Shown here piece by piece: positions 4,721-35,722 of a stretch of DNA of 35,825 nucleotides (position 1 is the stretch's first letter; the number at the start of each line of letters is the position of its first letter). The translations under genes and the position numbers were made by a program. Origin of the DNA: Hydrurus foetidus (lineage: Eukaryota); assembly GCA_900617105.1 (NCBI GenBank), contig UYFQ01000259.1, positions 1-35,825 of the forward strand. The letters run 5' to 3'. The notes beneath the pieces were generated by a model that saw only the letters and a list, made by a program, of their open reading frames with translations, ran no database searches and was not told where the DNA came from.

Positions 4721-4750
4721 ATAAAAAAAGTTAATTTAATTAACACAAGT

Positions 4751-10030: not shown

Positions 10031-11452
10031 ATGATGAACGAATATGCTAACTCGGAGGCGGTCGTGTACGGAGTTAGGCAAGCGGAAAATGAATCTGCCA
10101 AACGTCGCAAAATGCTAGCTGTAAATCCTTACGATGGTGAGGAAGTGGATGATAGCAAGGAGAATTTTCCGTATTCGAAAGTTAGAGGACCGTCGTATGT
10201 GCGAGTATTCAACCTGGGGGAGGATGCTACGTAATCCTAGAACCCGTGATCCTGGTGATAGAAAAGGTGGAGTTCTATTTAGACTTCGCTTCCGGGTTCC
10301 TTTTCTCTATTCGAAAGAATAGCTGCACTTACACGGGAGAAAAATTGATTTACGGAGAGAGGAGATTCCTCTGGTAGACGAGGCGCTCCGTTAGAGCTCA
10401 AAATTCTTGGAGTTTTGGGTGTTCTGGGTAGAGGCTATTGCTTTGATGGGATTGAGGAACTATCTTTCATCAGTGCTGAATGCAACAGGACGTTCTTTCA
10501 CTCATTTTGCTCTCTATTTTCAAAGAAATATTTTGAGGTTTATTGCAACCCACCTGTGGCTGATGCTGAGATTTCCCGGACTTTAAGTGTCTACGATAGA
10601 CTGGGTTTCCCTGGATGTATTGGCAGTACAGATTGTGTTCATATTAGATGGGAAAGGTGTCCTGTCGGAGATCGTTTTTTACACAAAGGGAAGGAGGGTT
10701 ACCCAACAATAGCCTACGAAGTAGCAGTTGATTATACCTCAAAAATTATTGCTGCTACGAAAGGTTTTCCTGGAGCAAAAAATGACAAAACAATTGTTCG
10801 TTTTGATGGATTTGTTTCAGCTATTCATGACGGTGATCTTTATGCCAATGTGAGATACAAAATGTGTAAAGAAAATGCAGAAGAATACCTGGAGAAGGGA
10901 TGTTATCTACTTGTTGACGGAGGATATCATTAGTGGCGCTGCCTTGAGTGTCCTTTGAGACACTCAGCTATCAAAAAAGGATCACTGTGGAGTGAATGGG
11001 CTGAGTCAGTGCGGAAAGATGTTGAGTGTACATTTGGTTCATTAAAAGGTAGATCTCGTTGTCTGAAAATGCCTATTTTTTATAACACAAGAGATGGAGT
11101 AGATAATATGTTCTTCACTTGCTGTATCTTTCATAATTTATTGCTTACTTTTGATGGTCTGGATGCACGTTGGGAAAAAGATATTAATTATGCTGGTATA
11201 GATGGTGAACATGCTGCAGAAGATATGTTTATTTTTCGTCAGCATTTGAGTAGAGTCAAAAATTTATCACCCGTTACTGATTATAGTTTCATAGGAGTTG
11301 ACCGTTTCAGAGATAGATTTGAAATTTCGCATGGAGAAGAAGTTGAAGAATATGAAACTTCTTATAATGAATTAAATAAAAAATTGGTAGATCACTTTGC
11401 CTTCAAACATTCAATCAATGACGTGCATTGGTTAAAGAAGAAATGTGTTTAA
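10031..11452 (+). pseudogene. PIF/Harbinger DDE transposase (H4)
   Basis: YSTWGRML, FRLRFRVPF, GCIGSTDCVHI, LVDGGYH, RKDVECTFG. Several stops and frameshifts (e.g. TAG 10931). Close to the H3 transposase. Confidence 0.9.
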
Positions 11453-13942: not shown

Positions 13943-15113
13943 TCACACTGCACCGAAGGGCAGCCAGCTTCTCACATCGTCCGTACTGGGTTGGGTACCC
14001 CCGACTAGAGAGTTCGATGACCCATGACCTCCCGCAGAGTAATCATGAACGGCCCTCATGACCTTGGACCCTTCGACGTAGTTCCCTCTATCTATCATGT
14101 CCATAGCTCTCATCTGCGTTGTCGCTGCTTTCCGAAGAGAATGCGACGAAAAATTGTCAGCCGGTAGCCCGGCTTCGCTACACACTCCCTTTACTGCCTC
14201 TCTCACCATCCTACCTTGAAGCCTTTTTCTGTCTACTACCCCAGACTGTCGCTCTAGATACCGACAGAACGACTCATCTGATGGTAAGACCTTTGAGAAA
14301 GCCATGAACGTTACCAGGTCGTCCAAAAACTGACTCTCTTCTGCTGATTGCCTGCCCACGGTCTTGGCCTTTACAAGTGCTCCCGTTTTCTGTGACGCAG
14401 TAAGTACTCGAAATCCCAGTACGTGTGAGGCTGATTCTCTACCCTCCCTAAGATCTCTGGTAAAGATGCCCCGCCACCCACCTGGTGGCTCCCTGTAGCC
14501 CCTTCGACCCCGAATACCAAATCGCTGCACCTTATGCAGTGATCTTCCGCTCCCACCTCATGGGGGGTGTACTCGGATATCCTAGCATCCATGTCGTAAC
14601 CCCACATGCACTCGATATAAGTCATCTTGCTATCAATATCCTCTCACCCCCACCCCCTGCCCGCCCAGAGCTTGACCCTTATGTCCTTGAGTAAGCTCTC
14701 GCATAAGGGCAGCTTCACATCACCTCTAGGTCCCTCATCTTTTTTCGCGCGCAATTCTTTGGTGCTCATGCGAAATGCCGTCCGCGCTGCTGCTACTATC
14801 GGTGAGTCGAAGAACGCAGATGACTGAAGCGCCATCAAGAACTTCTGTCGGATCCCTGCCGTCACGGAGGTGACCTGCTTTCCCCGCAGACCCTCGTCGT
14901 AGTGTAGTTGAAGAAAGAGGCCAACTATGGCAGGTTTGTCTTCCTCCAACCATTCCCTTGGCAGCGGATTTTCTGTGCCGAGATCCTGATACAGGAACCT
15001 GCACCACTTAAGCCAGTGCCCTTCGTACGCCTTCACTGTCGCCGCGGTGACCGACTGCGCCACGAACGATCCCACTCCTGCCCTGCTCAGCTCAGGTAGC
15101 TGGCGCGGAAGTC
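13943..15113 (-). CDS. Tyrosine recombinase of the DIRS/Ngaro-class element (frameshifted)
   Basis: N-terminal AATVKAYEGHW helix. Catalytic pattern DARISEY (R), SQKTG (K), SHSLRK (HxxR), RGNY, HDY (Y). Spread over three ORF-track frames. Confidence 0.88.
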
Positions 15114-15272
15114 CTAAAATAGAATAAAGATAAGGGATTCCGGCAGGTGAAGGTACCAGAGCGATGCAGATGGATATAGGGCAATGGCCTCAACTATCTT
15201 CTGCCAGAATGATATAAAGTTCACTTCATTCTCAAATGGTTCGCTTGGGCGACAGCATTCTATAAACTGCAG
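15114..15272 (-). CDS. C-terminus of the YR-element RT/RNase H ORF beyond the Gypsy-1 insertion
   Basis: Removing Gypsy-1 and one GCAG restores the frame: ...EENSQVL-QFIECCRPSEPFENEVNFISFWQKIV...ILF* (TAG 15114-15116). Confidence 0.8.
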   Translation of the reverse strand: MQFIECCRPSEPFENEVNFISFWQKIVEAIALYPSASLWYLHLPESLIFILF

Positions 15273-15546
15273 TATAGTCGCGGCCGGATTCGAGTACGAA
15301 GAAACCGGGTAAAGACGGTATGCTGGAGTAAACTGTTAGGTTAGTTACAGTTTGTGAAAGAAGAGAGCAAACAGCTAACGACAGACACAAACGATAGGCT
15401 ACAAGGGTGCTGATGCTGATGAGCGTCCGTTACCGGTGGACAAGTGATGTGGATGAAAATAGACTATGGGTACGTGAATTATATACATACGTGAATTATA
15501 TACAAACGTGTACGAAGCGTACGGTGAACGTACGTGCTAGGCTACA
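15273..15546 (-). repeat. Gypsy-1 3' LTR
   Basis: Direct repeat of 21182-21455 with 2 substitutions, one in the terminal dinucleotide (TA instead of TG on the + strand). Contains the tandem 17-mer TACGTGAATTATATACA x2. Confidence 0.97.
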
Positions 15547-15562
15547 CTACTCCTTCCTCCTT
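15547..15562 (-). other. Gypsy-1 polypurine tract
   Basis: Minus-strand AAGGAGGAAGGAGTAG abuts the 3' LTR. Confidence 0.9.
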
Positions 15563-15878
15563 AAAATTTAAGTTAAGTGAAAGAAAATGAATGTGAGTGA
15601 AAATACATGTGGTAACGTATAGCTCATTTGAAAAAGGTGCCACTTCAAATTATTCAGGGATCCCATACGCCTATCTATCGTCAAAGATTTGGTAGTATGT
15701 GTGGATATGAAAATCAAAATGTTGTCGACACGATTTTCATCGGCGGCACTCCTTAGAGTCGGGGTATAATATCTAAACAATTATGTCAGACTCTTACTGA
15801 CTAAAAACTCCCAAAAAGAATGTTGACCGACAACAAACAAAAAATAGGGTTGAAATCCATCATGGATATTGTTTAGTA

Positions 15879-18800
15879 TTATATATTTGTATCTACAACG
15901 TTTGTAAACTTTCTAGGTATTAAACGTTGAAGATTGTTAGATGTCAAGTATTCGTGTAATTTTTCGGTATCACGAAGATTGGCATAGGATGTCCATGAAT
16001 TGTGTTCATCGGCATAACCTAACCATTTGACAAGGAATTCTAACGAAGTTTTGCGTTGTAAGTCACCACGATGTTCAAGGATATTTTCAATGTAAAATTC
16101 CATATAATCATGACGAGCAACGTCTAATGGTTCAACACGTAGTGGATCAAAAAGAAAAGGTTTCATATCTGAAACATGATATTCTTTTTCGACATGAGAG
16201 ATAAGATCATAAAGGGTAAACCTTGAGTTTGATCCGGAAATAACTCTCATAGGACCACGCCAGAACGTATGAAGACGTGTAGGCGGGTGACCTGTACGGT
16301 AATGTACCAATACATACGTTCCGGGTTGGTAATCCGTATGTTGTAATTGTTTTTTATGTGTCATATGAAGTAAGTCAGTGCGAAGAAGTTCTTTAGCAGC
16401 TGCTTTTCTAAGACTATCTTGTGTCTTGAGAAGGTTACTCATATAGACTGACATAGATTTCTTTGAAGGAGGAACTTCGTCAATTGGACGGAACATACCA
16501 CGATCAAGATTAACACAGTTACCAAACAGTAATTGTGCAGAAGATATCTTTAAACGATCACTATGATTTGAATTAATTATTCTCATAACGAAAGGTAAAG
16601 CTAATTTGTAATCTTCTAATGAAGTGTTGTCGTATGTGAGTGATCGGATGTGACGGTTAATCTCTTTGTTCATACGTTCAACAATAGCATTTTCCTCCTT
16701 AGAGTAAGCTAATGTTAAACAGTGTCGAGTACCAACAAACGATAAAAACTCACGTATTACGTCAGCAATAAAGTGGGGACCGTTATCTGATCTTAACTGA
16801 TGAGGTGCTCCGAAACGACCAAAATGTTGTATTAAACATTGGGCGGCGGATAGTGCAGTTGAATCAGTAGTATGATACAATTCAGTCCAACGAGTGAATG
16901 TATCAATGATAACGAGGATATGTCCTCCATCAGGAAATGGACCGACAAAGTCGATGTTTAAACATTCCATAGGGTAATACGACGAAGTCGTAAAAGGATG
17001 AGCATGAATAGGTATTTTAATCATACTCATCTTTTGACATTGTGGGCAAAAGTCAATGAAATATCTAACATGATTTTCCATGAATTCCCACTTATGTTGA
17101 TTTGCTTTTAATCGTTTCATAGTTCTGGCTAGTCCAAAATGACCAACCATAGAATTGTGAACTGATGATATAGCATTGTATTGCATATCGGTGAGTTGAA
17201 TTTTCGGGATAATAGCTGCTGCAAGAATCATATCTGCAGAGTATTCCTTAGGTGAGTCGATCATATTGTTACGACATAGTCGAGACATAGAGTCGGCGAT
17301 ATCATTATCAACACCTTTAATAAATTCAATTTTATATGTATACTCAGAGAGTGCTACATACCACCGAACAATCATTGGATTAGAATTGTTATATATGTAT
17401 AACAGATTTCTATGATCCGTTCGAATTGTAAATAATCTATCACGTAAAAGTGATTGTAGAAAAATACAAGAATAGTAAATTGCATAAGCTTCTTTTGAAT
17501 AGTGGACCAACGGAGTTGAGACCCAGAAAGAGATTTGCTTACAAATGCAACCGGATAGTCCTTTCCATCAATAGTTTGGAAGAGGTAACCACCGATACCA
17601 TAATCAGATGCATCAGTGTGCAAAGTGATTGGTGCAGTATCACTAATGAAATGAATGGTAGTACATTTCGATACTTGTTCCTTTATTTCATTAAAAGCAG
17701 AAGTTGCTTCTGATGTCCATACTATCCGTTTTGTTCTTTGATAATTTGTAAGTAACGCGTGTAACGGTCTTACTATCGTAGACTGATTTCTGATGAAATC
17801 ACGGAAATAGTTTACTAATCCAAGAAAACTTTTAAGTTGTTTGGATACAGTAGGACAAGGAAAATCCAAAACTAATTGGATTTTACTCTGGGACATTCTA
17901 AGTCCCTCTTGTGATATAACCTTACCAACAAATTTTAAATCGGCATAGCCAAGGTAACATTTGGATGGTTTAAGGATCATTTTATGGAGACGAACGCGAG
18001 AAAAGAATTCTCGCAGTCGTGCAACAAAGTTGTCAGGACTGTTTCCAAAAATGTTAACGTCATCGATATAAATTTCTAAAATTCTATAAAGTAACGTATT
18101 TAACACTTCAGTAGCAATCATCTCTTGAAAATAAGAAGGTGCTTGCTTTAGACCAAAAGGTAGTCTAGTAAACTGATAGACACCACTATATAATATAAAC
18201 GAAGTATATTTTTTAGTAGCGAGTGTTAATGCGGCTTGATGGTATGCTTGAGCAAAATCCACCGTGCCAAAGATCGTCGGTTTCTGAGAACCGATTCTCT
18301 GTAACATTTCCGTTATGTTCGGTACGGGCCAAGAGGCATGTTCCGTACATTCGTTCAAGTTACGGTAATCTATAACGAATCTTTTAGATCCGTCAGCCTT
18401 AGTTACTAAAAATCCTTGGCTATAATAAGCCGCAGTGGATTTCTCAATAATACCCTGCTCAATGAGGATATTTAATTGTCTAGTAATCTCCTTCTGATTG
18501 GCTGCTGATTGAGGTCTAGGTGGTTGTCTATTTTTAGAGACACGCCACTTAGGGTCCTGAACAACCAGATCAAAAGGAGGAATAGAAGCAGGCTGAGATG
18601 AAAGTGTATTTGAAAAGATATCTCTGTATTCAATACAGAGTAGTCTAATCAACTCCTGAAGTTCAGGAGTACCCGATATGTTAATCAGGGATACTGGGTC
18701 AACCGGTTCCGGATTGGTATCCGGTAACCAAGGTGAAAAGGTACTAGCCTCATGTTCACCGATTTCATCATCATCTGGCATAGCCAGTTGAGATGTATTC

Positions 18801-21080
18801 TCGGATTGAATGACGAGAGAAGCTAGTAGACCTGATACAATAACCCTTTGGGGTGTTACTGAGGTCGCTGCCCTGTGCACTATATTAGTCGATGCTAATT
18901 GACTAGGCAACTCGAGGAATATTTGTGATTCCCGAATTGTCACTCGTCCGATCACAACATCGACTGAAGACTTGTTTAAAATAATTGCTTTGAAATTTAA
19001 AAAGTATTTTTATTTAAACGTTCAGAAAAGTAAGTCATTTTCAAATTTATAGACTTAGAAATGTTATAACATTTTCCATCCAAGGCTGAACAAACAGTCA
19101 GTGTCTTGTCGAAAATAATAAATTCTTCTAAATGAAAATTCTTAATTACACGCATGGCAACAAAATTGCCGGCGAGCGATCCCGTATCGATCAGCACTTG
19201 GACTTCATTTCTTGGCTGGCTGGGCTGTGACACATAGGTGACAGTAGCAGTTAGAAAGTCAGCTGACGAAAGGTTCGTAAGAGCTCCCAATATGGAAGAA
19301 GGAATAACAACATCAGTGAAACTAATAGTTGATGATAACTTACTTGTCTTCTTTAAGCTCTTTTGCTTAGTGACCGGCTTAGACGGACCCTCCGGTACAG
19401 CCGAGGCTGACGCGGTAGCAGTAGAAGAAGAGGAAGAAGAGGAGGTGGTAGGCACGTACGCTCCTCTTGCAACCAATGCATCAGGGTAATCCTTTTTCAG
19501 TTTCTTAAATGCATTGCTATCAGCATATGCACTGTCAGAAGAATTGAAGTAGGGTGATGCAGTAAATCTACACACAGAGATAGTGTGATTAGATCTTCCA
19601 CAACCAACACAGACCTGTACGGTGCGAGTGGTTGAGGGATTCGAAGACTTTGCAGTCTTCGCGGACTTAGCACGTGGTTTGATGGTGTCCTCATCAGGCT
19701 CAGCAGCGCGTTTGGAGATAGGCTTATCTTTAGAACGCGTAGCTGGGCCTGGAGTAACCTCATAACCAGCAGCCCGAAGCTCGTTAGCTGAGTTTCTGAG
19801 AGTAGTCAGTTGCGTCCACCAAACGAATCGAAAATCTTTCAAATCGTTGATTGGAACAGTCTCACCGTTCACCTTGCGGCGTAAGATGAGCTGCCAATTG
19901 ACGGGGTGGGTAGGCAACTGACGCTCTAGAATCTTAACAGCCTTAAGCTGTTCCTCAGCAGTAGTGCTGGGAAATTTGCTACCAATGCACCAAGGGCAGT
20001 ATCGTTACAGGAGTCAGTCTCAATGTTGTTCAAATCAAATCTGAAATTGAACGATGAGACTTGCTCGAGGAACGATGCCTGACCCAAAGGTGTATCGATG
20101 GACTCATCAGGTACTGCCTTGAGGAGTTCTTTGCAGAATCTCTCGGTAGTCCATGACTTCCACTCTTCGCACTCGTCGCGAATTGCTCTCTCAGTGCAAT
20201 ACTGCCTTTGCAGGAGTGTTACAAGAGATTGCTCGACGTCTAATGGTACCACGTCAAGAAACGTATAGGGGCAACCATTCTTGCGAAGGTCGTTGGTGAT
20301 GCTTAAAACTTCCAGATGAGTTGGAACCTTGCTGAGCTTTCTAACCTTTTCATGAGGTAGTAGATAGCGAGCAGCAAGGTTTGAAACAACAACATCGTCA
20401 GTAACACCACCAACGGTAGCAAAAGTTGCAACACTCTGAACATTTCTGTTCATGACATTGCTGTCTGAAGTGAGCAACAGGGAATCGGTTTGCACCGGGT
20501 TTGCAGGCAAAACTGCGGCAGATAACACAGACAGCACAGGCAAAGCAGGCAAAACATCACGCACAATGACAGGTGCAGGCGTGATGTTGGTGGCGGCGAT
20601 GGCGGTGATGGCGGTGGTGTCGGCGGTGGCGGCTATCATCGTGGATGATGATGGTGATGGTGCTGGCGGCGAAGGCGCCGGCTCCAAAGATACTCCATCC
20701 ACTCGCTGGGGAAGTTGTTGATGTTCAACAGAGACTTCCCCCGCTTGGGATATCGCTAGATCCGCTGTAATAGCTCCAGATGGAGCGGAAGATGGCTGCA
20801 AAAAATTTTGCAAGGGGTTTCCCCCTCCCACGCCGGGGGCCAAATTCGAGAAGGGGTTAGAGGCGATAGATAGATGTGCTGCGACGTCAGTCGCAGCAAA
20901 AGATGGATCTGGAAGCGAGGGAGGATTCGCCGAGTCGGAATCTCCCGTTGTGCTAGCGTCCATGGTGTCGGCGACGATCTCGACGACGGCGTCGGTTGAT
21001 GGCGCTTCCTGGGAAATCGACAGGGGAGCCGTCGAAACGGCCGATACCCTGGAAAGTCTTCGTCGGTTGCTGGAAACCAT
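15879..21080 (-). CDS. Gypsy-1 gag-pol polyprotein (Gag, CCHC knuckle, protease, RT, RNase H, integrase, chromodomain)
   Basis: CVGCGRSNHTISVC; LIDTGS; YIDD; TDASDYG; HHCC (H..GH..CPQC); DD35E core (NIDF, RSDNG, VER); chromodomain (FLVKWLGY...NSW). Three frame breaks, each fixed by adding one base to a homopolymer. Confidence 0.95.
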
Positions 21081-21181
21081 ACTGGTGATCAGTGCCAGAT
21101 GGTCGTCGGATGTCGGCGGTTGGAAAATCTATCTAGCTCTCCAGTAACGAGAGTTCGTCTAACAACTCTCAATATTAATAT

Positions 21182-21455
21182 TGTAGTCGCGGCCGGATTC
21201 GAGTACGAAGAATCCGGGTAAAGACGGTATGCTGGAGTAAACTGTTAGGTTAGTTACAGTTTGTGAAAGAAGAGAGCAAACAGCTAACGACAGACACAAA
21301 CGATAGGCTACAAGGGTGCTGATGCTGATGAGCGTCCGTTACCGGTGGACAAGTGATGTGGATGAAAATAGACTATGGGTACGTGAATTATATACATACG
21401 TGAATTATATACAAACGTGTACGAAGCGTACGGTGAACGTACGTGCTAGGCTACA
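21182..21455 (-). repeat. Gypsy-1 5' LTR
   Basis: TGTAG...CTACA termini. U5 hairpin CCGGATTC-N9-GAATCCGG. Confidence 0.97.
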
Positions 21456-23429
21456 GCAGCACTTGACTGTTCTCCTCAAACTTAAGGTTCCTTACAGCTT
21501 CCAACCCCAGCCCCAGTAGAACCCTTTCAACCGTCCTTCCTGACTCGGATATTCTCGATAGCTGGTCACAGCGAAAATTCTCTTCCCCCGAGATATGGGT
21601 CGCGAATTTTGCTTCAATGCCGTACGACACACATACGAGAGTGTACACCATAGCTGCATTTGACACTTGACTCCCTCGGGTCCTCTCCTTTTGTGCCCAC
21701 GTGAGTGCAGACATACTATCTCCACGCATCTCGATGTCCACACCCCTCACACCTAGTCTCACCAAGCCTAGTATCCCCACTATTGAACCGATGAACTCGC
21801 AAACGTTCTGGAACCTCGACTCTGTCGTGAACGCGAGGTGTCGGAGATCTACCGCACTGGCCCCCACACACACCATCGAGTTGCGGTGCCGTGGATAGAT
21901 ATGGCAACCTGCACCATGCAGTGACGCATCCGACTCAACGATGTACTCCGCGGCATCACTTCGAAATGATGTGATTGTTCAGGTGAAGCGCTCCTCGTTT
22001 AAGCGCACTAGAAACAAGATCGCTCTCAAGCACCTAATTGCTATTCGTGTCTCCTCTGATAGGGTGAAAGTCGCGTGGCGATCGAGTCTACCCGCTATCG
22101 CTCTATTCGACGCTCCGCAGAAGGGTCGCATCAGTCGACATATCCGTCCATACCGACTACCCCATGATGCGAGTTTCTGCATGGTCTTCACGTTCGTTTT
22201 GCCGCCGACGACGATCGCCAAGAAACCGTGCACTGCTGCGAAGAAATTCTTCCGCGCTAGTGACACCAGTCTCAGATCGAGGTCAATCATGTACCCGATC
22301 ACTTCGAGTCGAGTTCCCTTCTCAGACTTCTCGTCAGCCACCGCATCGGGTCCTAAGAGACTGGTGCAGATGTCCTTTGCGCATTCCATATCCAATGCCA
22401 AGTTTGACTCGAAGCACACTCCTATGACGTCATCAACGTACATCTCCGTATAGCTCTTGAGTGCTTTTGAGAACTCCCATTTTAATGCTCTTGTAACGAC
22501 TTGGAACGCAGCCGGTGTGCATGACCAGCCAAATATGCCACGGAGCTGTAAGTAGATGAGGTCCCCGGTGACCTCCATACCAAAAAGGCTGACATCGTCT
22601 GGTCTAAACGATAGGAGGGTATATGCTCCCTTCAGATCCATCTTCCAAATTCGTAGATCATACCATTCCTTTCCAGACTGGTTGGTGCCGTACTGCGTAA
22701 AGAAGCTCAGTATCGTGAGTACAATGTCATCAATGGTCGGATAGCGAATATGTCCGTAGAATCCCCCGCTTCTTTAGTCGCCTCGTCAGTATTCAGTGCT
22801 GTACCATCCACGTAGGTCATATCTCCTATCGGCCTTACGGACTCTTTGCCCTTCTTTTGTGTCTAGTGTGCTGTGCAGAGATGCAGTCTTGGGATGGTCT
22901 TGATGGCCAGTTTTTTTGGCAGAAGGAACCCCAAACCCCGTGACACGGTCTTGCCCACCATCCTATTGACCGCCTGATGAACCTTCAGGTAGGAGGCGCG
23001 AAGTGGTGTGAGCACTCCAGTGCCGTTCGGAGTAAAACCGATCGGTAGTGGCACCCGCATTTCCGCGGCCAGATCGCATAGCAGTTCTCTCTCCGGATTT
23101 CCGAATGAGAGCCCTCCTATCCGTTTTAGGTTGAGTCGGCTTGATTTGAGCGTATTCAACCTTGTCTTCACCATCCCCGCGAAGTTCCGATTAGCTTCCT
23201 CGAAGGAGCGCAAGTCCCTCTCTAGCATCTCCTTTGGGAATTCATAACCTTCCGCCCACTCCATGGCTTCTACGACACCGTAGTTTGTATACGCTATCAC
23301 TTGCGCCACTAACTCTGAAACAGGGAACACTTCCCCCGGTGCAAAGTACGAAGCTATCGTAGCCATAATTTCCTTTGTGGAGACAGCATCTACGCTGCTG
23401 ACTCTTTGCTCCTGCCCCGATGACCGCAT
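21456..23429 (-). pseudogene. RT and RNase H of the YR retrotransposon
   Basis: MDLKGAY, FGWSCTP, YVDD. RNase H motifs SDASLHG, GDSMSAL, HISGEENFRCDQLSR (DIRS-type). Stop at 22863 and frameshifts. Confidence 0.92.
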
Positions 23430-23440
23430 TTAGGCGGGCA

Positions 23441-23970
23441 CTATATCCGTAGCAGTTTCCCCGAGGGCTGCATGTAGGCAGCCGTTGAGTCGGGTCTCGC
23501 TCTCACCATTACTCCAACAGGTGTTCGCATGTGGGCGTACTCCCCGCCGGATCTCATCCTTGACTCAACTCTCTCCGACGTTTGCATGTGGGCCAACGTC
23601 ACGGGAGGCATCCTCCTCATTTCTTCTCTCACAGGTGCCTGCATGTGGGCAGACGCCGGAGCAGATCTACTTTCGAGTTCATTATTATTCCCTGGCACCT
23701 CACCCGCACCTGGTGACACCCCTCTTCTACCAGGGTTCCACTGTATGACGTGTGGTTGCCTCCGCAGAGTGCAACCACTCACTTCCTACACCTTCCCTCT
23801 TATCTTGGTCAACGCCGCTATTCGCAGAGTATCAGGTAACCACTTAAGGGCGGCGGAGACATCCACCATAAAAAAAGCTTGGTACTCGGCACCGCAGTAT
23901 TCACGAATTATGTAATTCAGTATGCTGCATCCTACGCTACAGTATTGGCAGGCACGCAATTCAGCGTTGC
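23441..23970 (-). pseudogene. Putative ORF1 (gag-position) remnant of the YR element
   Basis: Lies upstream of RT. Mostly open frame with one stop and four 19-aa repeats containing A(H/Y)M(Q/R). No recognisable domain. Confidence 0.4.
23470..23697. repeat. Degenerate 57-bp tandem repeat, 4 units
   Basis: GCATGT(A/G)GGC occurs at 23470, 23527, 23584 and 23641 (exact 57-nt period). Confidence 0.85.
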
Positions 23971-24323: not shown

Positions 24324-25003
24324 ATGTCGAAAGTCGAACTCGAAACTGTCGTCCACGTCGTAAAAAGAGGCGAGAAAGGCCGTCTCATCACGCAACAAAC
24401 AAATAGGCGTCAAGTATTTGCACGGGACTGCTTCGAAGAATTCAGCAGGCGAGTGACATGATTCAGCGTTTCAAGGACCTTAACAGTGGAAATGCGTATG
24501 ATAATGCTATGGCGGATGGCCTTGTTAGCAGTCTCATTCATCAAATTCAATTGGGACAAGTTGTGCTCCTCGAGGTGTTAGGTGTAGGTACATGGAGGTT
24601 CAAAAGAATCAGAGATGGTCAATCAAAGATGGTAGATTATAAGCGTCTAAATGATCTTCAGATACTCATGCATAGTGTGATCGTTTGTCCCGAGGGAAGA
24701 AGAAGAAGATCATTCAGTGTCTTATTCGCAGATCACCGATTCCATGGTTGCTGATCTTGCATCTTTTGTCGAATCATTCAATATGGAGCTTGGATATCCA
24801 TGCTCACATCGCAGAATGAAGAAGTATATTACCGAAGATGGTGTCGAAAATTTCACAAGGTACCTTGAATCTGAACTATGACGACTACAAACTCTACCTC
24901 ATAATAACTCACTATCCATAGGCTTTACGAGAAGTATCGCGCGTTTATTGAAGGAACTTCCAGTGACCAGTCAAGAGTAATGTCTTACGTCACATATCCA
25001 TGA
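24324..25003 (+). pseudogene. Degraded spliced ORF inside element F, unrelated to the Harbinger genes in this window
   Basis: Frameshifted pieces MSKVELETVV..., ...ELGYPCSHRRMKKYITEDGVENFTR|LYEKYRAFIEG...RVMSYVT, with a frame-preserving GT-AG intron at 24860-24921. Confidence 0.5.
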
Positions 25004-25417
25004 TCATAATACATACACATAGCGATTTCACATCATGTTTGATAGTAGTCAAACATTTGACTACATATTAACGGTGTTCTGGTCGAATACTACTGTACTT
25101 TACTGCAGTTGTTTTGAATCAGTAATATCATATCGCACTTATCGAATCATCCCATGACACAGCATTCATGCGATAGATCATACAAAATGGGGCCAAACTA
25201 AGCTATTAGTTGTAGTAATACGATTATTATTACACGTTTTACATTTATTTCCATTAACTCTTACCTACACTCATATACTCACTGGTTTATGACTTTATAA
25301 AGCTATTAACTTTTACAATACATCGCCTTCATCGACGTTTATTGAAGGACCAGTCAAGAGTAATGTCTTACGTCACATATCCATGATCACAATACATACA
25401 CATAGCAATTTTACATC
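24942..25417 (+). repeat. Direct repeat of about 80-90 bp (24942-25034 and 25336-25417)
   Basis: Shared CGTTTATTGAAGGA...CCAGTCAAGAGTAATGTCTTACGTCACATATCCATGATCA.AATACATACACATAGC. The second copy lacks 11 nt. Confidence 0.9.
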
Positions 25418-25758: not shown

Positions 25759-26995
25759 GGCCGCTCCTTATTCGCGTCGGATTTCACGAAAGTCGGAATC
25801 GGATTTCAAGAAAATTTCCGACCGACCCAAGGTTTTCCATTTTTTTTGTTCTACGACCGAGTTGGAATCGGAAGTCAGGGGAAATTTCCGATTCCAACTC
25901 GGTCGAAAATCGAGAAAATCAAAAAAATCGAAAAAATCGAAAAACCTTGGGTCGATCGGAAATTCCTTGGAATCCGACTCCGACTTTCGTGAAATCTGAC
26001 GCGCATAAGGCTATTCGTTATCGCGCCCCATTTACGAGAACGAGTTTTAGATTGTCTCGGAGTCCAAAATAGGACTCATTTTCTCGTGTATTTCGTCCTT
26101 ATCGTGGTACGAGTACGAGAAAACCATCTTTTCTCATATTTCCACTCCTTATCGTAAGAATTGTGAACGAGCTTGCGAAATTGGTTTCTGAACGCAATGC
26201 TAGCTCTTTGTGCATCGTTTAATTCACACTTCACATGTCTAATTCAATACTTTGGCTTCGTTAGAAATCTTTCAACGATGCACTTTAAGAGCAGTTTATT
26301 GAGGCCATCGTCCGTCATCATGTCACACTGAAATAAAAGCGCAGTTTCAAGAAGCTGTTGTTCAATCAGTGCTGTCGGTCAAACAAAAAAGGATTTTCGC
26401 TAAGAGGAGATTCGAAAAAAGACCCAACTATGATCAATCAACATGGGGGCAAATGCTAGCAAATCCATGCTCTCGAGATCCATCAGATAAAAATCGATTC
26501 TCCATCGTGGTAGCCATCTACTATACAGGCTTTGACAACGTAGTTATTTGATCGTAGAAGGATTTCCCTGCTGATTCCTTGAAGTGCAGGGGACAATCCA
26601 ATAATGCCTACTGCCATTTTGAACTCCTCGAAGATTTCCCGCTCAATTTGCTCCTTTGACATTTCGCGTTCCGCACAAACTGCCAGAGCGGTCTTCACAA
26701 TACAAACATATTGGAAGCTCTTGATATCATGAAATTGAAATATGATAAATCGTGGTATTTGTGATGAAATAGCAGGATTGCTAGTGCTGTCAGAAAACTC
26801 GTCTTGAAGAAACGCGTCACTGGATCCAGACGAGAATTAACTCCTTTTCTCGCGCCAGAAATGTGAAAATCGTGAAAACGAGTTTATTTATCGTAGTTGC
26901 TGCGCGATAAGGTGTCAAAATACTAGTTTCTCGATACGAAAGTCCAAAAAAACTCGTATTTCGGGGTGCGATAAGGAGTTGCCTAAGGACCGGCC
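25759..26995. mobile_element. Tourist-like (Harbinger) MITE of about 260 bp (25759-26008 plus 26987-26995), right TIR split by H6
   Basis: About 75-bp imperfect TIR starting GGCCGCTCCTTA. The right tip GGACCGGCC reappears after H6. TTA TSD at 25756-25758 and 26996-26998. Internal IR ACCGAGTTGGAATCGGAA/TTCCGATTCCAACTCGGT. Confidence 0.88.
26009..26983. mobile_element. Internally deleted Harbinger H6 (H3-like family), 975 bp
   Basis: TIRs GGCTATTCGTTATCGC / GGCAACTCCTTATCGC, TAA TSD (26006-26008, 26984-26986). Keeps the transposase N-terminus (+, MHFK...RRFEKRPNYDQSTWGQML) and the ORF1 N-terminus (-, DIKSFQYVCI...EQIEREIFEEFK...DGESI), fused near 26490. Confidence 0.9.
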
Positions 26996-27462: not shown

Positions 27463-28814
27463 ATGACAGAAGACGTGGAAGGCATGCCTGTCGAGTACGC
27501 CAAAGTCGCTTCTGCTCGAGCTTCTAGAGCTACAGAAGCAGGCAGAACGTCAGCAAAGCAACGCTCTCGAATATTCTGTAATAAGAAACAGCTAAGTGAC
27601 TATCAGTTTTTATGGAGGACCAATTGTGCAATGAAAAACTATTCCGTGAATTTGCGACGTATATTTCTGAAGCCAAGCTGCTTAAAGTTCAGGAGTTGTT
27701 GAGATCTGGCACAGCTATTCAATATCTCTCTGCGATAAAGGAAATGGCGCAAAGACGATTCCCTAAAAACGACCTCTGGAAGGAGTATCGGCTTGATAAG
27801 TGTTATCCGTCGCTGCGGGTTGCATTAGAGAAAAAAGTCAACCGCCGGCAAATTGTAAACGGTTCATCAATCTCAGAAAAATCAAAAGCACTGGATAGAA
27901 ATGTGCTATCCATCGCATCTGAAACGCTGATGAGAGACGGAAGAATGGAGGCTATGAAGAGGCGCCTCGCTATTGTGATGACGTTTTTAGCCGTAGGCAG
28001 GGCTGGCGAGGCAGCATGCTCAACTTGGGCATCAGCTACTTGGGATTATGAGCGCGGCAACTTGCTGATGGACTGGAATGAGCTAAAGACAGGTCTGTAA
28101 CTTGACAATGAACTCTATTACTACTATGAAATAGTGCTCGATATCGTATTTAATATGTCTAGGTGATTCAGATCCGATGAAATTTTTGTCTGATCAGTCA
28201 TCTATGGATATTGACTTCTATCATGCGATGGCGTGCTATTCGATTCTGGGTGGCGGTAACGTGAAACTAAGTCAAATTGGATTATCCCGGATTTAGCAAG
28301 TAATGTTGATTCGACATCGTCTTTTGTGACAAAATATGTCAGGGAGAGTTTAGCACAATGTAACGATGAGTCCCTCGCTGCAAATAGCGGCGACTTTGAA
28401 GGAACCTCTTTGAGGTCGGCAACTTAAGTATTCGGTGCTCTATAAAGCAGATGTTACAATTCTTGCTTGTTATGTCGTTATTAATGCAGAGTCGGAGCAG
28501 CAAATCACCTTGCATGTCACAAGACAGTCAAATTCAACAATATGGTTCTCCATGGTGGCTGGGAAGGCAAGTCCTTCTCGAGGTTATTTATTTTCATCGA
28601 GGGTGTCCTTCATCCTGTATCATCGGCCGGTCGCGCGTTAGCCGGGTGGAGAGACTCAACCGTTGACGTCTATCAGCCAGTGTGCTGTTTTATGCAATCT
28701 GATATGAAAGTGCAAATCGAGAATCTGATTGTGAAACTCTTCCAGTGCTCAGTGCAGGAGCTCCATCCGAGAGGCAGGCTTTGGCCTCTTGCAAAGTGCA
28801 TGTTTGCAACTCTT
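27463..28814 (+). pseudogene. Crypton-like tyrosine recombinase (DNA transposon), truncated by Gypsy-2
   Basis: SGTAIQYLS, AVGRAGE (catalytic R), ELKTG (K), GTSLR, HGGW...AGRALAGW. GT-AG intron 28093-28162. No RT nearby in the same element. Frameshifted. Confidence 0.75.
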
Positions 28815-29036
28815 TGTGACCCGCACACCCGTACGGGCTGTACGGGTACAGGCGTACGTTCGGACCGGATCGAGGACGATCCGATCCGATCCATCCGATT
28901 CATTGCCATGATACCTGCTGTGTTTATCTGTAAGCTAACCACATTGTTTCCATAGCAATAGCTCTCCCAGCTTCTTTTCCCTCGCTCCCGCTCCCAGCTG
29001 ACCCGCTCCCAGTGCCCAGATCCTGGCAAGGCCACA
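28815..29036 (+). repeat. Putative Gypsy-2 5' LTR (222 bp)
   Basis: TGTGAC...GGCCACA termini. Starts where Crypton-like coding stops. GTAC-rich U3 like Gypsy-1. The boundary is inferred because the second LTR is not visible. Confidence 0.75.
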
Positions 29037-29588
29037 ATACCGGTATTTGGAACCAGCTAGTGATCTCTAAGATCCAAGTTGACCAAACGTCCCAACCAAA
29101 AATCCCGCAACGACCGTAAAACAGTCTGAGCAACAAGTTGAGTAACTCTCCAAGAGTGAAAACCACCCAAAACGATACTACAAAGGTCTCGTCAACGCGA
29201 CAGCCTCTGAATCGTAGTCGTTCGCGACCTCAAATATTGGCGATTTATTCCCAAAATATCGTGCAGCTCTTCTACGCGAAGGCTTACGAAGGAAAGGAAC
29301 TTGCAAGCAAGTAACACCTCCCAAACTCGTTCACGAACGAAATCCAACGCGCCCACGCCCAGCTTCGTTCCTTACGAAGCCGCCGCCCACGTCCAAATTT
29401 TGTTGCGATTTCCTCCCGAAATCGCACCAAACCATTCCAATCCCCCTGACTTCTACTACCACATCCTTTACCTACCAGTCCTCACACTCGAACAACCTAC
29501 TCCTCTTTTCCCTGAATCACCGCGTCCGCGTTCCGTCGCTGTCCAAGACGCAGAGTTCCAGTGAGATTTCCCACGCCAAGTTTTCAAG

Positions 29589-32500
29589 ATGGTTAAGGCC
29601 CAAAAACCCAAGAAAGAGAGCTCTAGCGAAGCTAGCTCGTCTTCCAAACGCTCCAAACCCCAAAATATCCTCTTCCTATCGGATAAATAGAAGGCTAAAC
29701 TCGAGCGTCTCGCTCGGGAAGACAATATAGCCAACTCCATGAAGACGCTGGGCAAATCGGCTATCAAAGCCTCGAGCACCCATACGCGCATATCCGATGA
29801 ATTGGCGGCAAACGAAGCACGCTTTCTGCAGCTACAACAAGAACGTGAACGCAATCGCGTGCGACTTGAAGTCCTGCAGGAACAGGCTGACAACAGATCT
29901 GATCTCGAAGATCAAGAACTGAAAGACTTGTCAGCCTGGATGCAAGAGACAAATGACTTACACAGTCTAAACCCTCAGTCAGATGAGGATGGCTCTCCAA
30001 TCCGACCCCAAACCGAAGAAGAAGAGGATATCAATCCTTCTCAAACGGAAGAGGGCGACGACACAATCGGTACCAAAATATCTCCGAAGGAAATTCTCTC
30101 CGACGATGATAACGTCTCGGTGTCTGACAACGCCTCGGAAGAGGCGGAAGACGAACAAACCAACGACGAGGACGAAGAGGAAGACAACAACCCCGACGAT
30201 ACCAAGTCCAAATCGGACGAGGAAGATCAAAGTGAGTCGGAGGCGTCAACCCCACCGTCACCAAAACCGAAAAAGAAAAAGGCGATGCCAATCAAACCCC
30301 TTGCCAAAACAAGGGAGGCGAAACAACTCTCTGCCGTCCAATCTGAAGACAAACCCACGCGTACCACCAGATCCAAAACGTCCAAAGCAACGGTAGCAGC
30401 TGCAAAGAAGTCAGCGACAGCTTCCACGAAAGCGGCTGCCACTTCAAACCGCAAGCGCAAAACCGAAGAGACTGACACAGTCTTCGAACAACAACGAACA
30501 CCCCAAGCACTCACAACCTCCCTCATCAACATGAAGGAAGTGTTCTATGTAACACGTGAGACATTACTGAAGGACATGGACGGCACAGCCCGAAAGTTCT
30601 ATACACAGGCGCATCGCCCTCAGTTTAATGCACCTTGGAAGGATCTCATCGAAGACGAAGCGGTCCATGTGATCCGAGACAGTCTCCTTCAAAATCGAAA
30701 GACTCTCGGATACACAATCAAAATGTGTCAAACCTGGCCCATCATCGACGACAAACTCCTGTCCATTCGCGACATGGCCACCGATCTCAAGAAACTCTTC
30801 TTCAGTGATCGCACCACAGAGTCTACCTATGACTTAGACCTTGCCCTGAAAAACTGGCAAATGAAGATCAAATGGCAAAACCCAAACGTAGAGTTGGCGG
30901 CAATTGCACGACTCCGAGACATCCTCTTCGGATACTACGGCAGCTACGACAATATACCTGCAAACCGCCAACATGAGATCTGTAAGATCATCTACAAAAA
31001 GCTCCCTCTTGATAATAAGTTCACTGACAACTTCATGAACATTACAAAGGACAAAACAAGAAACAACAAACAGGATTCCATCCCAAACATGTTGTGCCGA
31101 ATGAATCTCTGCCTCAGTGAAGCTCGGCAAACCGTTATCAACGCGTCCAACATGGGTGGTCTTCGCTATGACTTCGAGACAAAAATCACCCCCGACTCAT
31201 TGTCGTCCAGCAACACAACGCAGCTCTCCGCCTCCTACCGCACGATACCCAAACGCGAATCCGACGCCTACCCAGGTCTGAGCAAAACAATCGATAATTG
31301 CCACACCTGCGGTCGCCAAGGACACAATCGCTACGATTGTCGCAATTTCATGAATCCTCATTGCAACAACTCGTATACCACGTGGAGTCAATCCACGTTG
31401 GCAACGGAGTTCAGGAGAATTGGCCACGACCATTTCGTCCCAAACGTCCTACTCAATGGCGAAATGACCAGGACAACCAACAATCCTGGCGCGGCAACAT
31501 ACGTCTACCCAACCGACGACGTCGAAGCTGACATGGGTCCCGCTGCAAAAGACGACCCTCGCAAGTCCAACAACAACAACAACAACAACAACAGCAAGAA
31601 CAACAAGGCCAAAAACAACAACAACAACAACAACAACAACCGCAACAACGACCGGTCCAACCGCGACAACGACCGCAAAGACAATCGCGACACCGATCGC
31701 AACGAAAACCGCGATACTCGCGACATCAAAGACCGCGGGTACAAAGGAAAACGTGAGTCCAAAATTCCGTATGCGGAAAATATCTCAGAAAATCGTATTT
31801 TGCCAAACATGCAAATGCTTTTATCAACAATCATACCTAACGAGATTGATGATTACTTACAAGTAACAATATATCTTCCTCAGACCCAATCCCCGGCTAC
31901 CGCTTTGGCGACCGCGTTGACAGCCGCGACCGCGACTCCAACCGCAAAGACGACTCGCGCCAAGCGGAAAAGGACAAAGACAAAGATCGCCGCGATCGAG
32001 ACCGGTCCCCACCCAAATCCTCCTCCAGCTATGGACCCAAATGACGGCATGGCCGCCTTAGCCCAAATCGACACCGGATGTCAGGTTGGGGACGTAATCA
32101 ATCGTAGAGTCCTTCGGGGCCTACGTGGTGAACCCCAACTCGCACCACCGACTCTCCCATATGGATGTGTTCGGGTCTAAATAATCAATGTATTGAATCC
32201 ACTGCTGTCCTTGATATTGTTGTATCATTTAACAAAAACGATTTAAAATACACTTTTCTCTTCCGGTGCGAATTGCAGAAGATTCCAAAGTCGACCTAAT
32301 CTTAGGATTAGAGACCATAAAAAACTAAATTTGGTTAAAATCATTCCGGAATTCTTCCAATCTCCGGAAAATATCCAAAATGAAAAAATTCAATCATTAA
32401 AAAACTGAATCAATCCACAAACATGGTATTAAACCACGTGGATGTTCCACTCATGCTAGAAGCAGAGTCGGACACAGTTACGAGTATTACAAGTCCAACC

Positions 32501-35500
32501 TTACCTCCGGTTATAACTAGCCTGGAGGGGATAAAACCCTCAGACACAGACAGTCGATGGCAAGACGACCTGGTGGCTCGAGGTGCTTGTACAAGCAAGA
32601 CATGCACTCCTTCATGTGGGTGTCCCACTAGCTTAGCTGCGGCAGCGGCTAGGCTAGATTCTGATGAGTTCATTTTGCACTCTACGGTCGAGGCAGCAGT
32701 TTTGTTGTCACCTCCCCGACAAAATGATTTAGGTGTAACAACCGACAGGAGTCCGGAATTAGCTACTCCTACTCCCTCATCCAAGGCACCAGCCCAAACA
32801 CGTGGTTTAGTTGCTGCTCTACTCCGGGAGCGTGAAGAACTCCCAGAGGTTCAACCCTTCGGACCCGAAGAGATTGACTACAAGTCGAAGGATACCTTCG
32901 CTCCTTTCCAAGACAATCCAACAGAGGACAAAATGTACCTCATCGATCTCATACAAATCGATGGTACCCCTGAACAACAAGCAAAAATTAGAGCAATTTG
33001 TGTCAAACACATAAAGCTATTCAACAACAAACTCGGACCAGAGCCCGCGCGAATTCCCCCCTTTGGACTACCCGTACGGGATCCAGAGTGGAAAGTTTTC
33101 AAAAACCGCGTAGCACCACGACCAACGTCTACACGAAAACAAGTCGAAATCCGAAAACAAGTTGAAACTATGCTTGAACAGGGTATAATAGTCAAATCAG
33201 AGGCATCATACTATTCGCAAGTAACACTCGCGGCAAAGCCAGACGGTTCATACCGATTCTGTATTGACTATCGTCACCTCAACGACGCAACGGAATCAGC
33301 AAGCTGGCCAATCCCTAATATTAAACAAATGTTAGCAAGATTAGGTTCACAAAAGCAGACACATTCGGTGTAATAGACCTCACAGCAGGATATCACCAAG
33401 CACCGTTAACTCTAAGTACACGTGTGTATACAGCTTTCATAACATTTATGGGCATCTACCACTTTACCCGACTACCTTTCGGACCCAAAAGAGCCCCCTC
33501 ATATTTCCAAGAAATGATGGCCTCAATAGTCCTTTTAGGACTAATATACCAAATCTGTGAAGTATACCTCGACGACATCATCGTTTATGGTAATGGATTT
33601 GATCAATTCTGCGAGCGATTAGAAATACTTTTTCAACGCCTAGAAAACAAAAACATTTCACTAAAAGCCGCAAAGCTAAAGCTAAATGTGCGAATAGTTG
33701 AATATGTCGGTAGACAAATATCTAAAGAAGGTATAACTATGAGTTCCAAAAAATAAGAGGTGTGACCGACTTTCCTATGCCACGAAAGACGACTGAACTT
33801 AGATCGTTCCTCGGACTCACCAATTATTTTCGGGATCATGTACCAAATCACTCCAACGTGGTAGCACCACTGCACAAAATTATAGATCACGCCGCGAAAA
33901 AGCAATCAATGCTAATCTGGACAGATGACGCCGCAAATTCTTTTCAAAAGATAAAAGATCTAATTGCAAAGAGTCCTTTATTATATTTCATACACGATAC
34001 AGCGCCCATTACCCTCATGACCGATGCGTCAGATTACGGGATCGGCGGCTATTTGTATCAAGAAGTCGACGGAGAAAACAACTCGTCGCTCTCGTAAGCA
34101 AGTCTCTTACCAAGACTCAACTGAAATGGTCAGTAATACAAAAAGAAGCCTTCGCGCTATATTATTGCTGTACTTATCTCGACGCACTGCTGCGAGACCG
34201 TAAATTCACAATCCTAACAGACCACAAAAATCTTACGTTCCTAGAAAAGGATAAAAACGAGATGGTCGGCAGATGGCGTATGGCCCTGCAGGAACTAGAA
34301 TATACGATAGGGTACATCCCGGGAAAACAAAATGAAATTGCTGACGCAATGTCTCGCCTATGTAAAAACAGAATGCCTCCTAAAACAGGAATAATAGCAG
34401 CAATTCTGACACACAAACCAATAACGACAGAGCAATATAACCTAATTGCAACGTGCCACAACACGATAGTCGGACATGGTGGTGTACAACGCACACTGCG
34501 TAATTTAAAGAAAACAAATAACATATGGCTGGGAATGCGTGACGCAGTAAAAACATTCATTAAAAATTGTCCGTGTTGCCAAAAGATGTCGGCAATGAAA
34601 TATCCCATCAACGCATACCGGTACACAACCTCAACATACAAGCCAATGGAATGCCTTAACATAGACTTCATTGGTCCATTTCCCGATAAAGGATATATCC
34701 TTGTTATGATCGACACCTTCTCAAGGTTTGTCGAACTCTACGCAACACCTGATGCAACAGCCAAATCGGCGTGCACAGCACTTGTAGAACACGTGGGACG
34801 CTACGGCTCACCATGTATACTTCGATCAGATAATGGACCCCACTTCGCAAGCCACATCATAGATGAGTTTGTGAAGATTGTTGGAACAACACACAACAAA
34901 ATATTACCATACTGTTCAGAAGAAAACGCTATCGTCGAGCGAATCAACAAAGAAATCAATCGCCATATAACCGCGTACGCATACGAACGGGCAACTACGG
35001 AAAACTACGCGGAAATATTACCGTTTGTACAAAGAATACTAAATTCAACCGTAAATGACCGGATGAAAGTGTCTCCAGCACAACTCATCTATGGCAACGC
35101 GATCGACCTCGACGCAAACATCCTCCTCCCGAGAGATGAAATTGATTTAGATTTCGACTCACTCACAAGGTCAACTGATAAAATGTTAACGTTGCAAGAT
35201 GAACTCATCGAAATCACCGCACGTCTACTCAAAGAATCCGACGACTTGCACAATGCACAACAACTTCCCAACGTCACACAGTTCGGAGTCGACACATTTG
35301 TACTTGTCCAACAAAGAACATCACCAGAAACGCGCATGCACACACTGTGGCGCGGCCCAATGCGAGTTGTCAGCCACAACTTCGCAGAGTATACATTACT
35401 CGATCTGGTAACACACAAAGAAAAGTTGTACCACATGACCCAACTAAAACCGTTTCACTTTGATCCTACGCATGTCGATCCAACTGACATTGCTCGTAGA

Positions 35501-35722
35501 GATTATCTAGAATTCTTCATAGAGGAAATCCTAGAAATGAAAGGAAACATAAGAGCATACAAATCACTCACATTTCATGTGAAATGGCTCAACTACACCC
35601 ATGAACACAACACATGGGAACCGTGGACACACATGCGTAAAGCGCAAAAAGTACATGAGTTCTTAATCAAAAAGAACCTCAAACACTTAATACCACGCGA
35701 ATTCATCGCAAACTACCGTTAA
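29589..35722 (+). CDS. Gypsy-2 gag-pol polyprotein with chromodomain
   Basis: CHTCGRQGHNRYDC; QIDTGC; YLDD; TDASDYG; H..GH..CPCC; NIDF/RSDNG/VER; FHVKWLNY...NTWEP. One in-frame TAG at 29688 (next ATG 29739) and seven single-base frame breaks. Confidence 0.93.
31569..31649 (+). repeat. (AAC)n microsatellite encoding poly-Asn in Gag
   Basis: Two AAC runs giving SNNNNNNNNSKNNKAKNNNNNNNNNRNN. Confidence 0.95.

Follow-up and report, generated by a model that had tools for sequence, protein, structure and literature searches.

A covarying palindrome at the primer-binding position of a clade of chromodomain Gypsy elements, with a possible role in self-priming between paired RNAs

What primes reverse transcription in an LTR element whose 5' LTR is followed by a palindrome in the position of a tRNA-complementary site? 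The question is raised by two elements, here called Gypsy-1 and Gypsy-2, lying in a transposon-dense stretch of eukaryotic DNA of 35,825 nt (the window). An initial annotation had claimed that both carry a palindrome at the edge of the 5' LTR, and the claim was borne out. The junction reads CTACA followed by ATATTAATATTG in Gypsy-1 (minus strand) and CCACA followed by ATACCGGTATTTGG in Gypsy-2 (plus strand), and both palindromes are perfect (Table 1). The whole window contains 11 perfect palindromes of at least 12 nt. A palindrome of this length starts at 5 of its 8,906 CA or TA sites and at 14 of 25,479 such sites in the pol regions of related elements, that is at about 0.06%.

Gypsy-1 is a complete LTR element (15273-21455, minus strand) inserted in a DIRS-like element. 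The order RT-RNase H-integrase, together with the LTRs, the target-site duplication and the polypurine tract, identifies it as a Ty3/gypsy element, and both Gypsy-1 and Gypsy-2 gave a chromodomain match (PF00385) at the integrase C-terminus. The gag region of Gypsy-1 returned only a faint zf-CCHC match from Pfam. Its two LTRs, each of 274 bp, show 2 mismatches. The LTR edge was confirmed both by the 3' LTR of the element itself and by a 97%-identical copy from another genome (L173), which terminates in CTACA ahead of unrelated DNA. The termini of the two LTRs differ, being CA at the 5' LTR (21182-21183) and TA at the 3' LTR (15273-15274); the TA could reflect a mutation, an assembly error or a primer overlapping the last bases of the LTR. 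The target-site duplication of this single insertion measures 4 bp; for plant LTR elements the commonest length is given as 5 bp (PMC6317226).

The LTR edge of Gypsy-2 is deduced rather than fixed, as the window ends before the 3' LTR of this element. The TGTAAGCTAA motif occurs 107 nt upstream of the proposed edge and 59 nt upstream of the edge in two relatives (L100 and L111). A candidate LTR start, TGTGAC at 28815, gives an LTR of 222 nt against a clade median of 228, and Gypsy-2 itself falls within the palindrome-bearing clade. Copies of this LTR were found in none of 19 genomes and in no viral contig. The RT cores of Gypsy-1 and Gypsy-2 are 53% identical and no repeat shared by their LTRs was found.

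Table 1. Coordinates of the two Gypsy elements and of their features in the window.
Feature	Position	Strand	Remarks
Gypsy-1 5' LTR	21182..21455	-	274 bp, TGTAG...CTACA; end backed by copy L173
Gypsy-1 3' LTR	15273..15546	-	274 bp, terminates in TA
Target-site duplication CTGC, left copy	21456..21459	-	adjoining host sequence is the DIRS-like element
Target-site duplication CTGC, right copy	15269..15272	-	4 bp
Gypsy-1 gag/protease region	18997..21128	-	two frames; the translation shows a zinc knuckle and a DTGS protease motif
Gypsy-1 pol	15879..19009	-	RT, RNase H, integrase, chromodomain; interrupted by frameshifts in this assembly
Gypsy-1 polypurine tract	15547..15562	-	
Gypsy-1 palindrome, perfect, 14 nt	21170..21183	-	last CA of LTR + 10-nt core (21172-21181) + TG; primer-binding position
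Gypsy-1 extended imperfect inverted repeat	21162..21190	-	predicted: U5 end (21185-21190) pairs with leader (21162-21167) outside the palindrome
Gypsy-1 U5 hairpin, 8-bp stem	21193..21217	-	just upstream of palindrome region; one arm mismatched in 3' LTR copy
Conserved 3' UTR hairpin, covarying stem	15785..15801	-	between pol and polypurine tract; common to relatives
Gypsy-2 5' LTR	28815..29036	+	222 bp; both ends putative
Gypsy-2 palindrome, perfect, 12 nt	29036..29047	+	last A of LTR + 10-nt core (29037-29046) + T
Gypsy-2 gag/protease region and RT start	29691..33373	+	two frames
Gypsy-2 RT, RNase H, integrase, chromodomain	33325..35722	+	frameshifted; 3' LTR past window end

Other elements lie in the remaining part of the window. 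The DIRS-like element interrupted by Gypsy-1 spans 13943-15268 and 21456-23785 (minus strand); its frames are broken, and its weak RT and tyrosine recombinase matches both fall below the Pfam cut-off. The reading frames upstream of Gypsy-2 (27600-28814, plus strand) gave no Pfam match; their motifs resemble those of a tyrosine-recombinase gene of the Crypton-like type, and the frame may be interrupted at the proposed LTR start at 28815. Remnants of Harbinger-like DDE transposases (PF04827, PF13359) were observed at 8163-9362, 10349-11452 and 4751-5212, and related diverged repeats at 554-1028 and 4750-5213. A MITE-like pair of 80-nt inverted repeats, 85 nt apart, lies at 25766-26010 and a 70-nt direct repeat with 96% identity at 24965-25417.

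Relatives of the two elements were gathered by RT alignment, yielding 26 viral loci, 36 loci from genome bins and, from metagenomes, the 80 best of 393 loci. They derive from metagenomes and from contaminant contigs in bacterial bins; loci L027-L062 are eukaryotic retrotransposon contigs that contaminate many bacterial genome bins. A total of 116 loci were clade-like. A 5' LTR junction was recovered in 64 and none in 52, mostly due to contigs that are short upstream, while several have only a 3' LTR running into the flank; three of the junction-less loci (L054, L058, L062) were examined by palindrome listing and reading frames only. Adding the two window elements, the set comprises 66 junctions, which fall into 33 families when grouped at 80% RT identity; the lowest RT identity is 38%. 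The junction-bearing elements form one branch with support of 100 in two trees (FastTree and a quick LG+G4 run), in which Tf1, sushi and Skipper references were not included, and 59 of the 64 junction-bearing loci gave a match to the Gypsy-1 chromodomain.

A perfect palindromic core of 8-14 nt was present at 65 of the 66 junctions, a count that is not blind, as it was the palindrome that led to most of the junctions. The core measures 10 nt in 52 cases, 14 nt in 11, and 12 and 8 nt in one each; the sole imperfect junction, that of L121, differs from its sibling by a G-U variant. In 61/66 junctions the core is followed by a T that pairs with the last A of the LTR, and the core begins with ATA in 22 of the 33 families. 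The LTR terminates in CA at 51/66 junctions and in TA at 15/66, the TA-ending LTRs occurring in 5/33 families (e.g. L002, L029, L074, L077, L096 and L101). In order to fix the LTR end without the palindrome, the loci whose 3' LTR runs into the flank were used as a blind test. All five clade loci placed the LTR end at the palindrome or 1-3 nt into it (the repeat ends at the first A of the palindrome in L088, L099 and L115, and 1 and 3 nt inside in L122 and L132), while both non-clade loci showed a TGG-type site. The palindrome was not present at the 3' LTR ends of the blind-test loci. A BLAST search of the U5 ends against all loci returned no non-palindromic 5' junction. The palindrome is a real, clade-wide feature, and the presence of covarying palindromes in other family members, on which the claims of the initial annotation depended, was confirmed.

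Several candidates were discarded. The palindromes of L005, which lies outside the clade, and L141 were dropped as junctions, being only about 35 and 52 nt past the LTR start, and L043 was rejected as a counter-example, since its contig joins upstream bacterial DNA to an RT fragment. A scan of the viral contigs with a single protein detected no relative, two viral matches to the Gypsy-1 LTR motif were due to chance, and a degenerate palindrome pattern searched in 5 genomes gave background-like counts. In L114 (3755-4010) the polypurine tract is followed by an LTR-like long inverted repeat with arms of about 110 nt that reaches the contig end; it may represent a fold-back artefact or an LTR that carries long terminal inverted repeats.

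The symmetry of the site is maintained while its sequence changes. The perfect cores comprise 23 distinct sequences, with several different palindromes inside a single family; of the 16 conceivable palindromic tetramers, 12 occur at the centre, which is self-complementary in every case. In a set of 32 hand-picked 12-nt sites, corresponding to 21 distinct rows, 98.4% of cells pair. The distinct rows contain 30 cells with a two-sided change and none with a one-sided change, a score matched by 0 of 500 shuffles. Along a 52-row tree of the 10-nt cores the five pairs changed 5, 2, 3, 13 and 15 times, left and right equally, and the two central pairs (13 and 15 changes) are complementary in every 10-nt core. 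Two siblings with 99% RT identity (L063 and L064) have the centre swapped, TCGA against TTAA, and symmetric letter swaps were also found in L096/L105, L068/L115, L095/L108 and between two copies within L100. In 20 disjoint pairs, 11/218 core positions had changed (5%) against 95/761 and 105/767 in the flanks (12-14%), a slower change that is also explained by ordinary selection. Such strong covariation in natural sequences restricts the candidate partners to a second copy of the site.

Beyond the initial annotation, an outer helix between the U5 end and the leader was predicted. With 8-nt arms in 32 families, the predicted pairing energy was -2.68 kcal/mol for an element's own arms and -1.24 kcal/mol for cross-family combinations (permutation p about 5e-5 to 1e-4), and where U5 has CC, the core tends to be followed by GG (Fisher p 0.005). 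The helix is weak in each single element, the own partner ranking best in only 4/32, and ungapped complementarity past the A-T pair stayed at chance level (7, 11, 10, 6, 8 and 5 of 32). In many predicted duplexes a bulge at the terminal bases of the LTR, where synthesis would begin, separates the outer helix from the palindrome. Isolated sites were predicted to form no hairpin (0 kcal/mol in 24/24) and to form dimers at -6.2 to -14.9 kcal/mol. The core was fully paired in trans in 27/32 predicted homodimers; as any palindrome favours a predicted homodimer, this is not independent support. In the local context the best predicted fold of Gypsy-1 contains a monomer hairpin, as do those of some relatives, and the outer pair of the core formed with a mean probability of 0.43 in such monomer folds; according to these models a monomer hairpin in context is plausible.

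A second structured motif lies at the opposite end of the element. The 3' UTR hairpin of Gypsy-1, with a 5-bp stem and a 7-nt loop, recurs at 21 further loci (e.g. L073, L096 and L120), and its stem is GTCAG/CTGAC in 13 loci and GTGAG/CTCAC in 8. The pattern occurs in 22/70 loci, of which one has another stem; in 199,697 nt of pol it matched once. It is possibly a packaging or cyclisation signal.

Known primer partners were then considered. The absence of a tRNA-type TGG near the edge, already claimed for the two window elements, extends to all 66 junctions (0/66 within 0-5 nt). A tRNA scan of the window detected no tRNA, and an Rfam scan gave no match. The claim that neither LTR holds a complement to the transcript 5' end, as expected for Tf1-type priming, was likewise upheld: among 25 families with a whole LTR none reached 9 or more Watson-Crick nucleotides, and the longest complements measured 4-8 nt, with a mean of 5.5 against 5.9 after shuffling, so that priming of the Tf1 type is not supported. 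A second, downstream copy of the site, as in GalEa (CHSeq2), did not reach 8 nt in any of the 25 families (mean 4.2 against 4.5 shuffled). A primer supplied by a host tRNA, a tRNA fragment, a small RNA or a Tf1-like transcript 5' end, with the palindrome incidental, would fit the TGG found after the core in some members, Gypsy-2 included, and the 9-nt LTR complement that 2/25 families reach when G-U pairs are allowed. A displaced tRNA site at this TGG was however rejected, as the stretches following it are mutually different and its GG tracks the CC in U5. Moreover, 23 sequences, several of which occur within one family, cannot match one host RNA, and it is the sequence diversity of the sites that argues against a half-tRNA complement. 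Given also the shuffled-level LTR complements, a primer of this kind is very unlikely.

The palindrome might instead serve solely in dimerisation or packaging, as do the retroviral DIS and the PAL motifs of Ty1, which are dimerisation palindromes, while another, unseen primer is used. A dimer contact needs exactly what was found, namely sequence-free self-complementarity with a strict centre, several monomers are predicted to form a hairpin with a self-complementary loop, and Donnart et al. draw the DIS comparison for GalEa in the available part of their paper (PMC5445492). According to the same text the retroviral DIS is additional to a PBS (PMC5445492); in the accounts available to us, these retroviral and Ty1 palindromes, also self-complementary RNA motifs close to the 5' end and able in principle to link two genomes, act beside a tRNA site, whereas here the palindrome replaces that site and touches the LTR. 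It abuts the last base of the LTR, where synthesis must start, in every blind case, and no alternative primer site was found as a TGG, an LTR complement or a downstream copy, so we consider a pure dimer signal unlikely. A fold-back within one molecule, in which cleavage of the RNA behind the palindrome leaves a 3' end that snaps back and primes on its own U5, would require no partner RNA, and the extended inverted repeat appears as a hairpin in the predicted context folds of Gypsy-1 and some relatives. The loop bases would then be free, yet the two central pairs stay complementary through all their changes; isolated hairpins are predicted to be unstable, and the cut would part the site from the template required for plus-strand transfer. 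We regard the fold-back as quite unlikely. Finally, the symmetry could act on DNA, in plus-strand transfer, end processing or binding of a dimeric protein, and say little on the RNA primer. The strictly Watson-Crick pairs, with no one-sided cells and a G-U variant in 1/66 junctions, and the variable LTR termini speak for such a role. Against it, 23 different palindromes of 8-14 nt are difficult to reconcile with a sequence-reading protein, the 3' LTR ends without a palindrome, and plus-strand transfer would require symmetry only if the primer were the site's own sequence, which is the explanation preferred below; a role confined to DNA is thus rather improbable.

The reading that we prefer, with a probability of about 0.5, is that two genomic RNAs pair via the palindrome and one of them, cleaved at the palindrome's 3' end, primes minus-strand DNA on its partner. 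The palindrome would thus be binding site and primer at once. A symmetry that tolerates any sequence, extends through the centre and lies directly against the LTR suggests that two copies of one strand pair with each other; for an antisense or host primer a palindrome would be unnecessary. The initial annotation had proposed either a hairpin or an intermolecular duplex, and the duplex is favoured over the hairpin, as the centre is always self-complementary through so many different tetramers. A hairpin with a self-complementary loop might convert to the intermolecular duplex inside the particle, and the element's own RNase H might, as in Tf1, make the cut at the bulge or internal loop that separates the outer U5-leader helix from the palindrome. 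A single RNA of the pair would be cut, the other retaining the site for plus-strand transfer; were both cut, this transfer would proceed without homology, so that an unexplained asymmetry is needed. More speculatively, the primer might be copied into plus-strand DNA as the reverse complement of the site, and repair would then turn single changes into paired ones. The near-absence of G-U variants would fit such copying and repair, which is nonetheless the weakest step and a doubtful one: the sites of Ty1 and Ty3 are not inherited from the primer, as stated in the available text of PMC5371799, and the slower change of the core than of its flanks has an alternative explanation in ordinary selection.

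As for known systems, the accessible part of PMC6317226 recognises three types of primer for LTR elements, i.e. a whole tRNA, a half tRNA and the Tf1 self-primer, and classes Chlamyvir as tRNA-type. The closest published precedent, which had not entered the initial annotation, is the fungal GalEa group of Copia elements, whose 9-nt Conserved Hairpin Site (CHSeq1) is palindromic together with the last A of the LTR and has a complementary copy 12-41 nt downstream (CHSeq2), for which the sections available offer no mechanism (Donnart et al. 2017, PMC5445492); a paper on bivalve TRIMs cites the GalEa site, again with no mechanism in the text available (PMC6934838). On the basis of these sources, GalEa and our elements share the lack of a tRNA site, compensating variants of a palindrome into which the final A of the 5' LTR is drawn, the lack of a U5 complement and, in some elements, a larger hairpin bulged at the LTR junction. 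They differ in that GalEa belongs to Ty1/copia, whereas the present clade is chromodomain Ty3/gypsy with the integrase after RNase H; the GalEa palindrome measures 10 nt against mostly 12-16 nt here, flanking A and T included; two cores cover 85% of the GalEa families against 23 cores here; and CHSeq2 is present in GalEa and in 0/25 of our families.

Tf1 primes itself in cis with the 5'-terminal 11 nt of its transcript (PMC7175516, PMC10085805, PMC4600332, PMC6317226), needs duplexes adjacent to the PBS and has an RNA duplex cleaved by RNase H (PMC10085805, PMC7175516), and its site begins with ATAAC, a copy of the PBS often being kept in the cDNA (PMC11042837), as far as the accessible portions of these papers report. 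The likeness to Tf1, sushi and Tcn1 in these accounts extends to a chromodomain integrase, a site flush with the CA of the LTR and often beginning with ATA, the lack of TGG, a U5-leader duplex beside the site, which is predicted and weak in the present elements, and a proposed self-derived RNA primer. However, the transcript 5'-end complement of Tf1 has no counterpart in these LTRs (0/25 families), and the Tf1 site is described as non-palindromic in the available text of PMC5445492. From the sequence comparison, the elements of the clade are probably self-primed, as Tf1 is; they resemble Tf1 in this respect and GalEa in geometry, yet fail a defining test of each. Skipper from dictyostelids and SM-Tcn1 from Selaginella are also chromodomain Gypsy elements with neither a tRNA site nor a Tf1-type complement, and their authors left the priming open in the sections available; they carry pyrimidine- or T-rich stretches where palindromes occur here (PMC5006619, PMC2864245). 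For Tcn2-5, a novel priming is said to have been proposed in a Cryptococcus study, as cited in the accessible part of PMC7175516. A full-text literature search, which left most subscription papers uncovered, returned neither a palindromic primer site in a Gypsy element nor a model of priming in trans. A palindromic site of this geometry is known from GalEa, and its occurrence in Gypsy appears to be unreported.

GalEa, Skipper and SM-Tcn1 fit none of the three recognised primer types and have been left unexplained. A wider proposal, which we advance tentatively and at odds slightly against it, is that of a fourth way of priming, in which one genomic RNA of the dimer is sacrificed as primer for the other, with independent origins in Gypsy and Copia, and which would account for GalEa as well. 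Copying of this primer would symmetrise the site, so that compensatory changes could arise with no fixed broken intermediates. If pairing and priming between two genomic RNAs are indeed the function of the site, the palindrome would provide an annotation marker for LTR elements overlooked by tRNA-based finders. A sequence-free palindrome would couple dimerisation to initiation, and these elements would represent a new priming class linking genome dimerisation to the initiation of reverse transcription.
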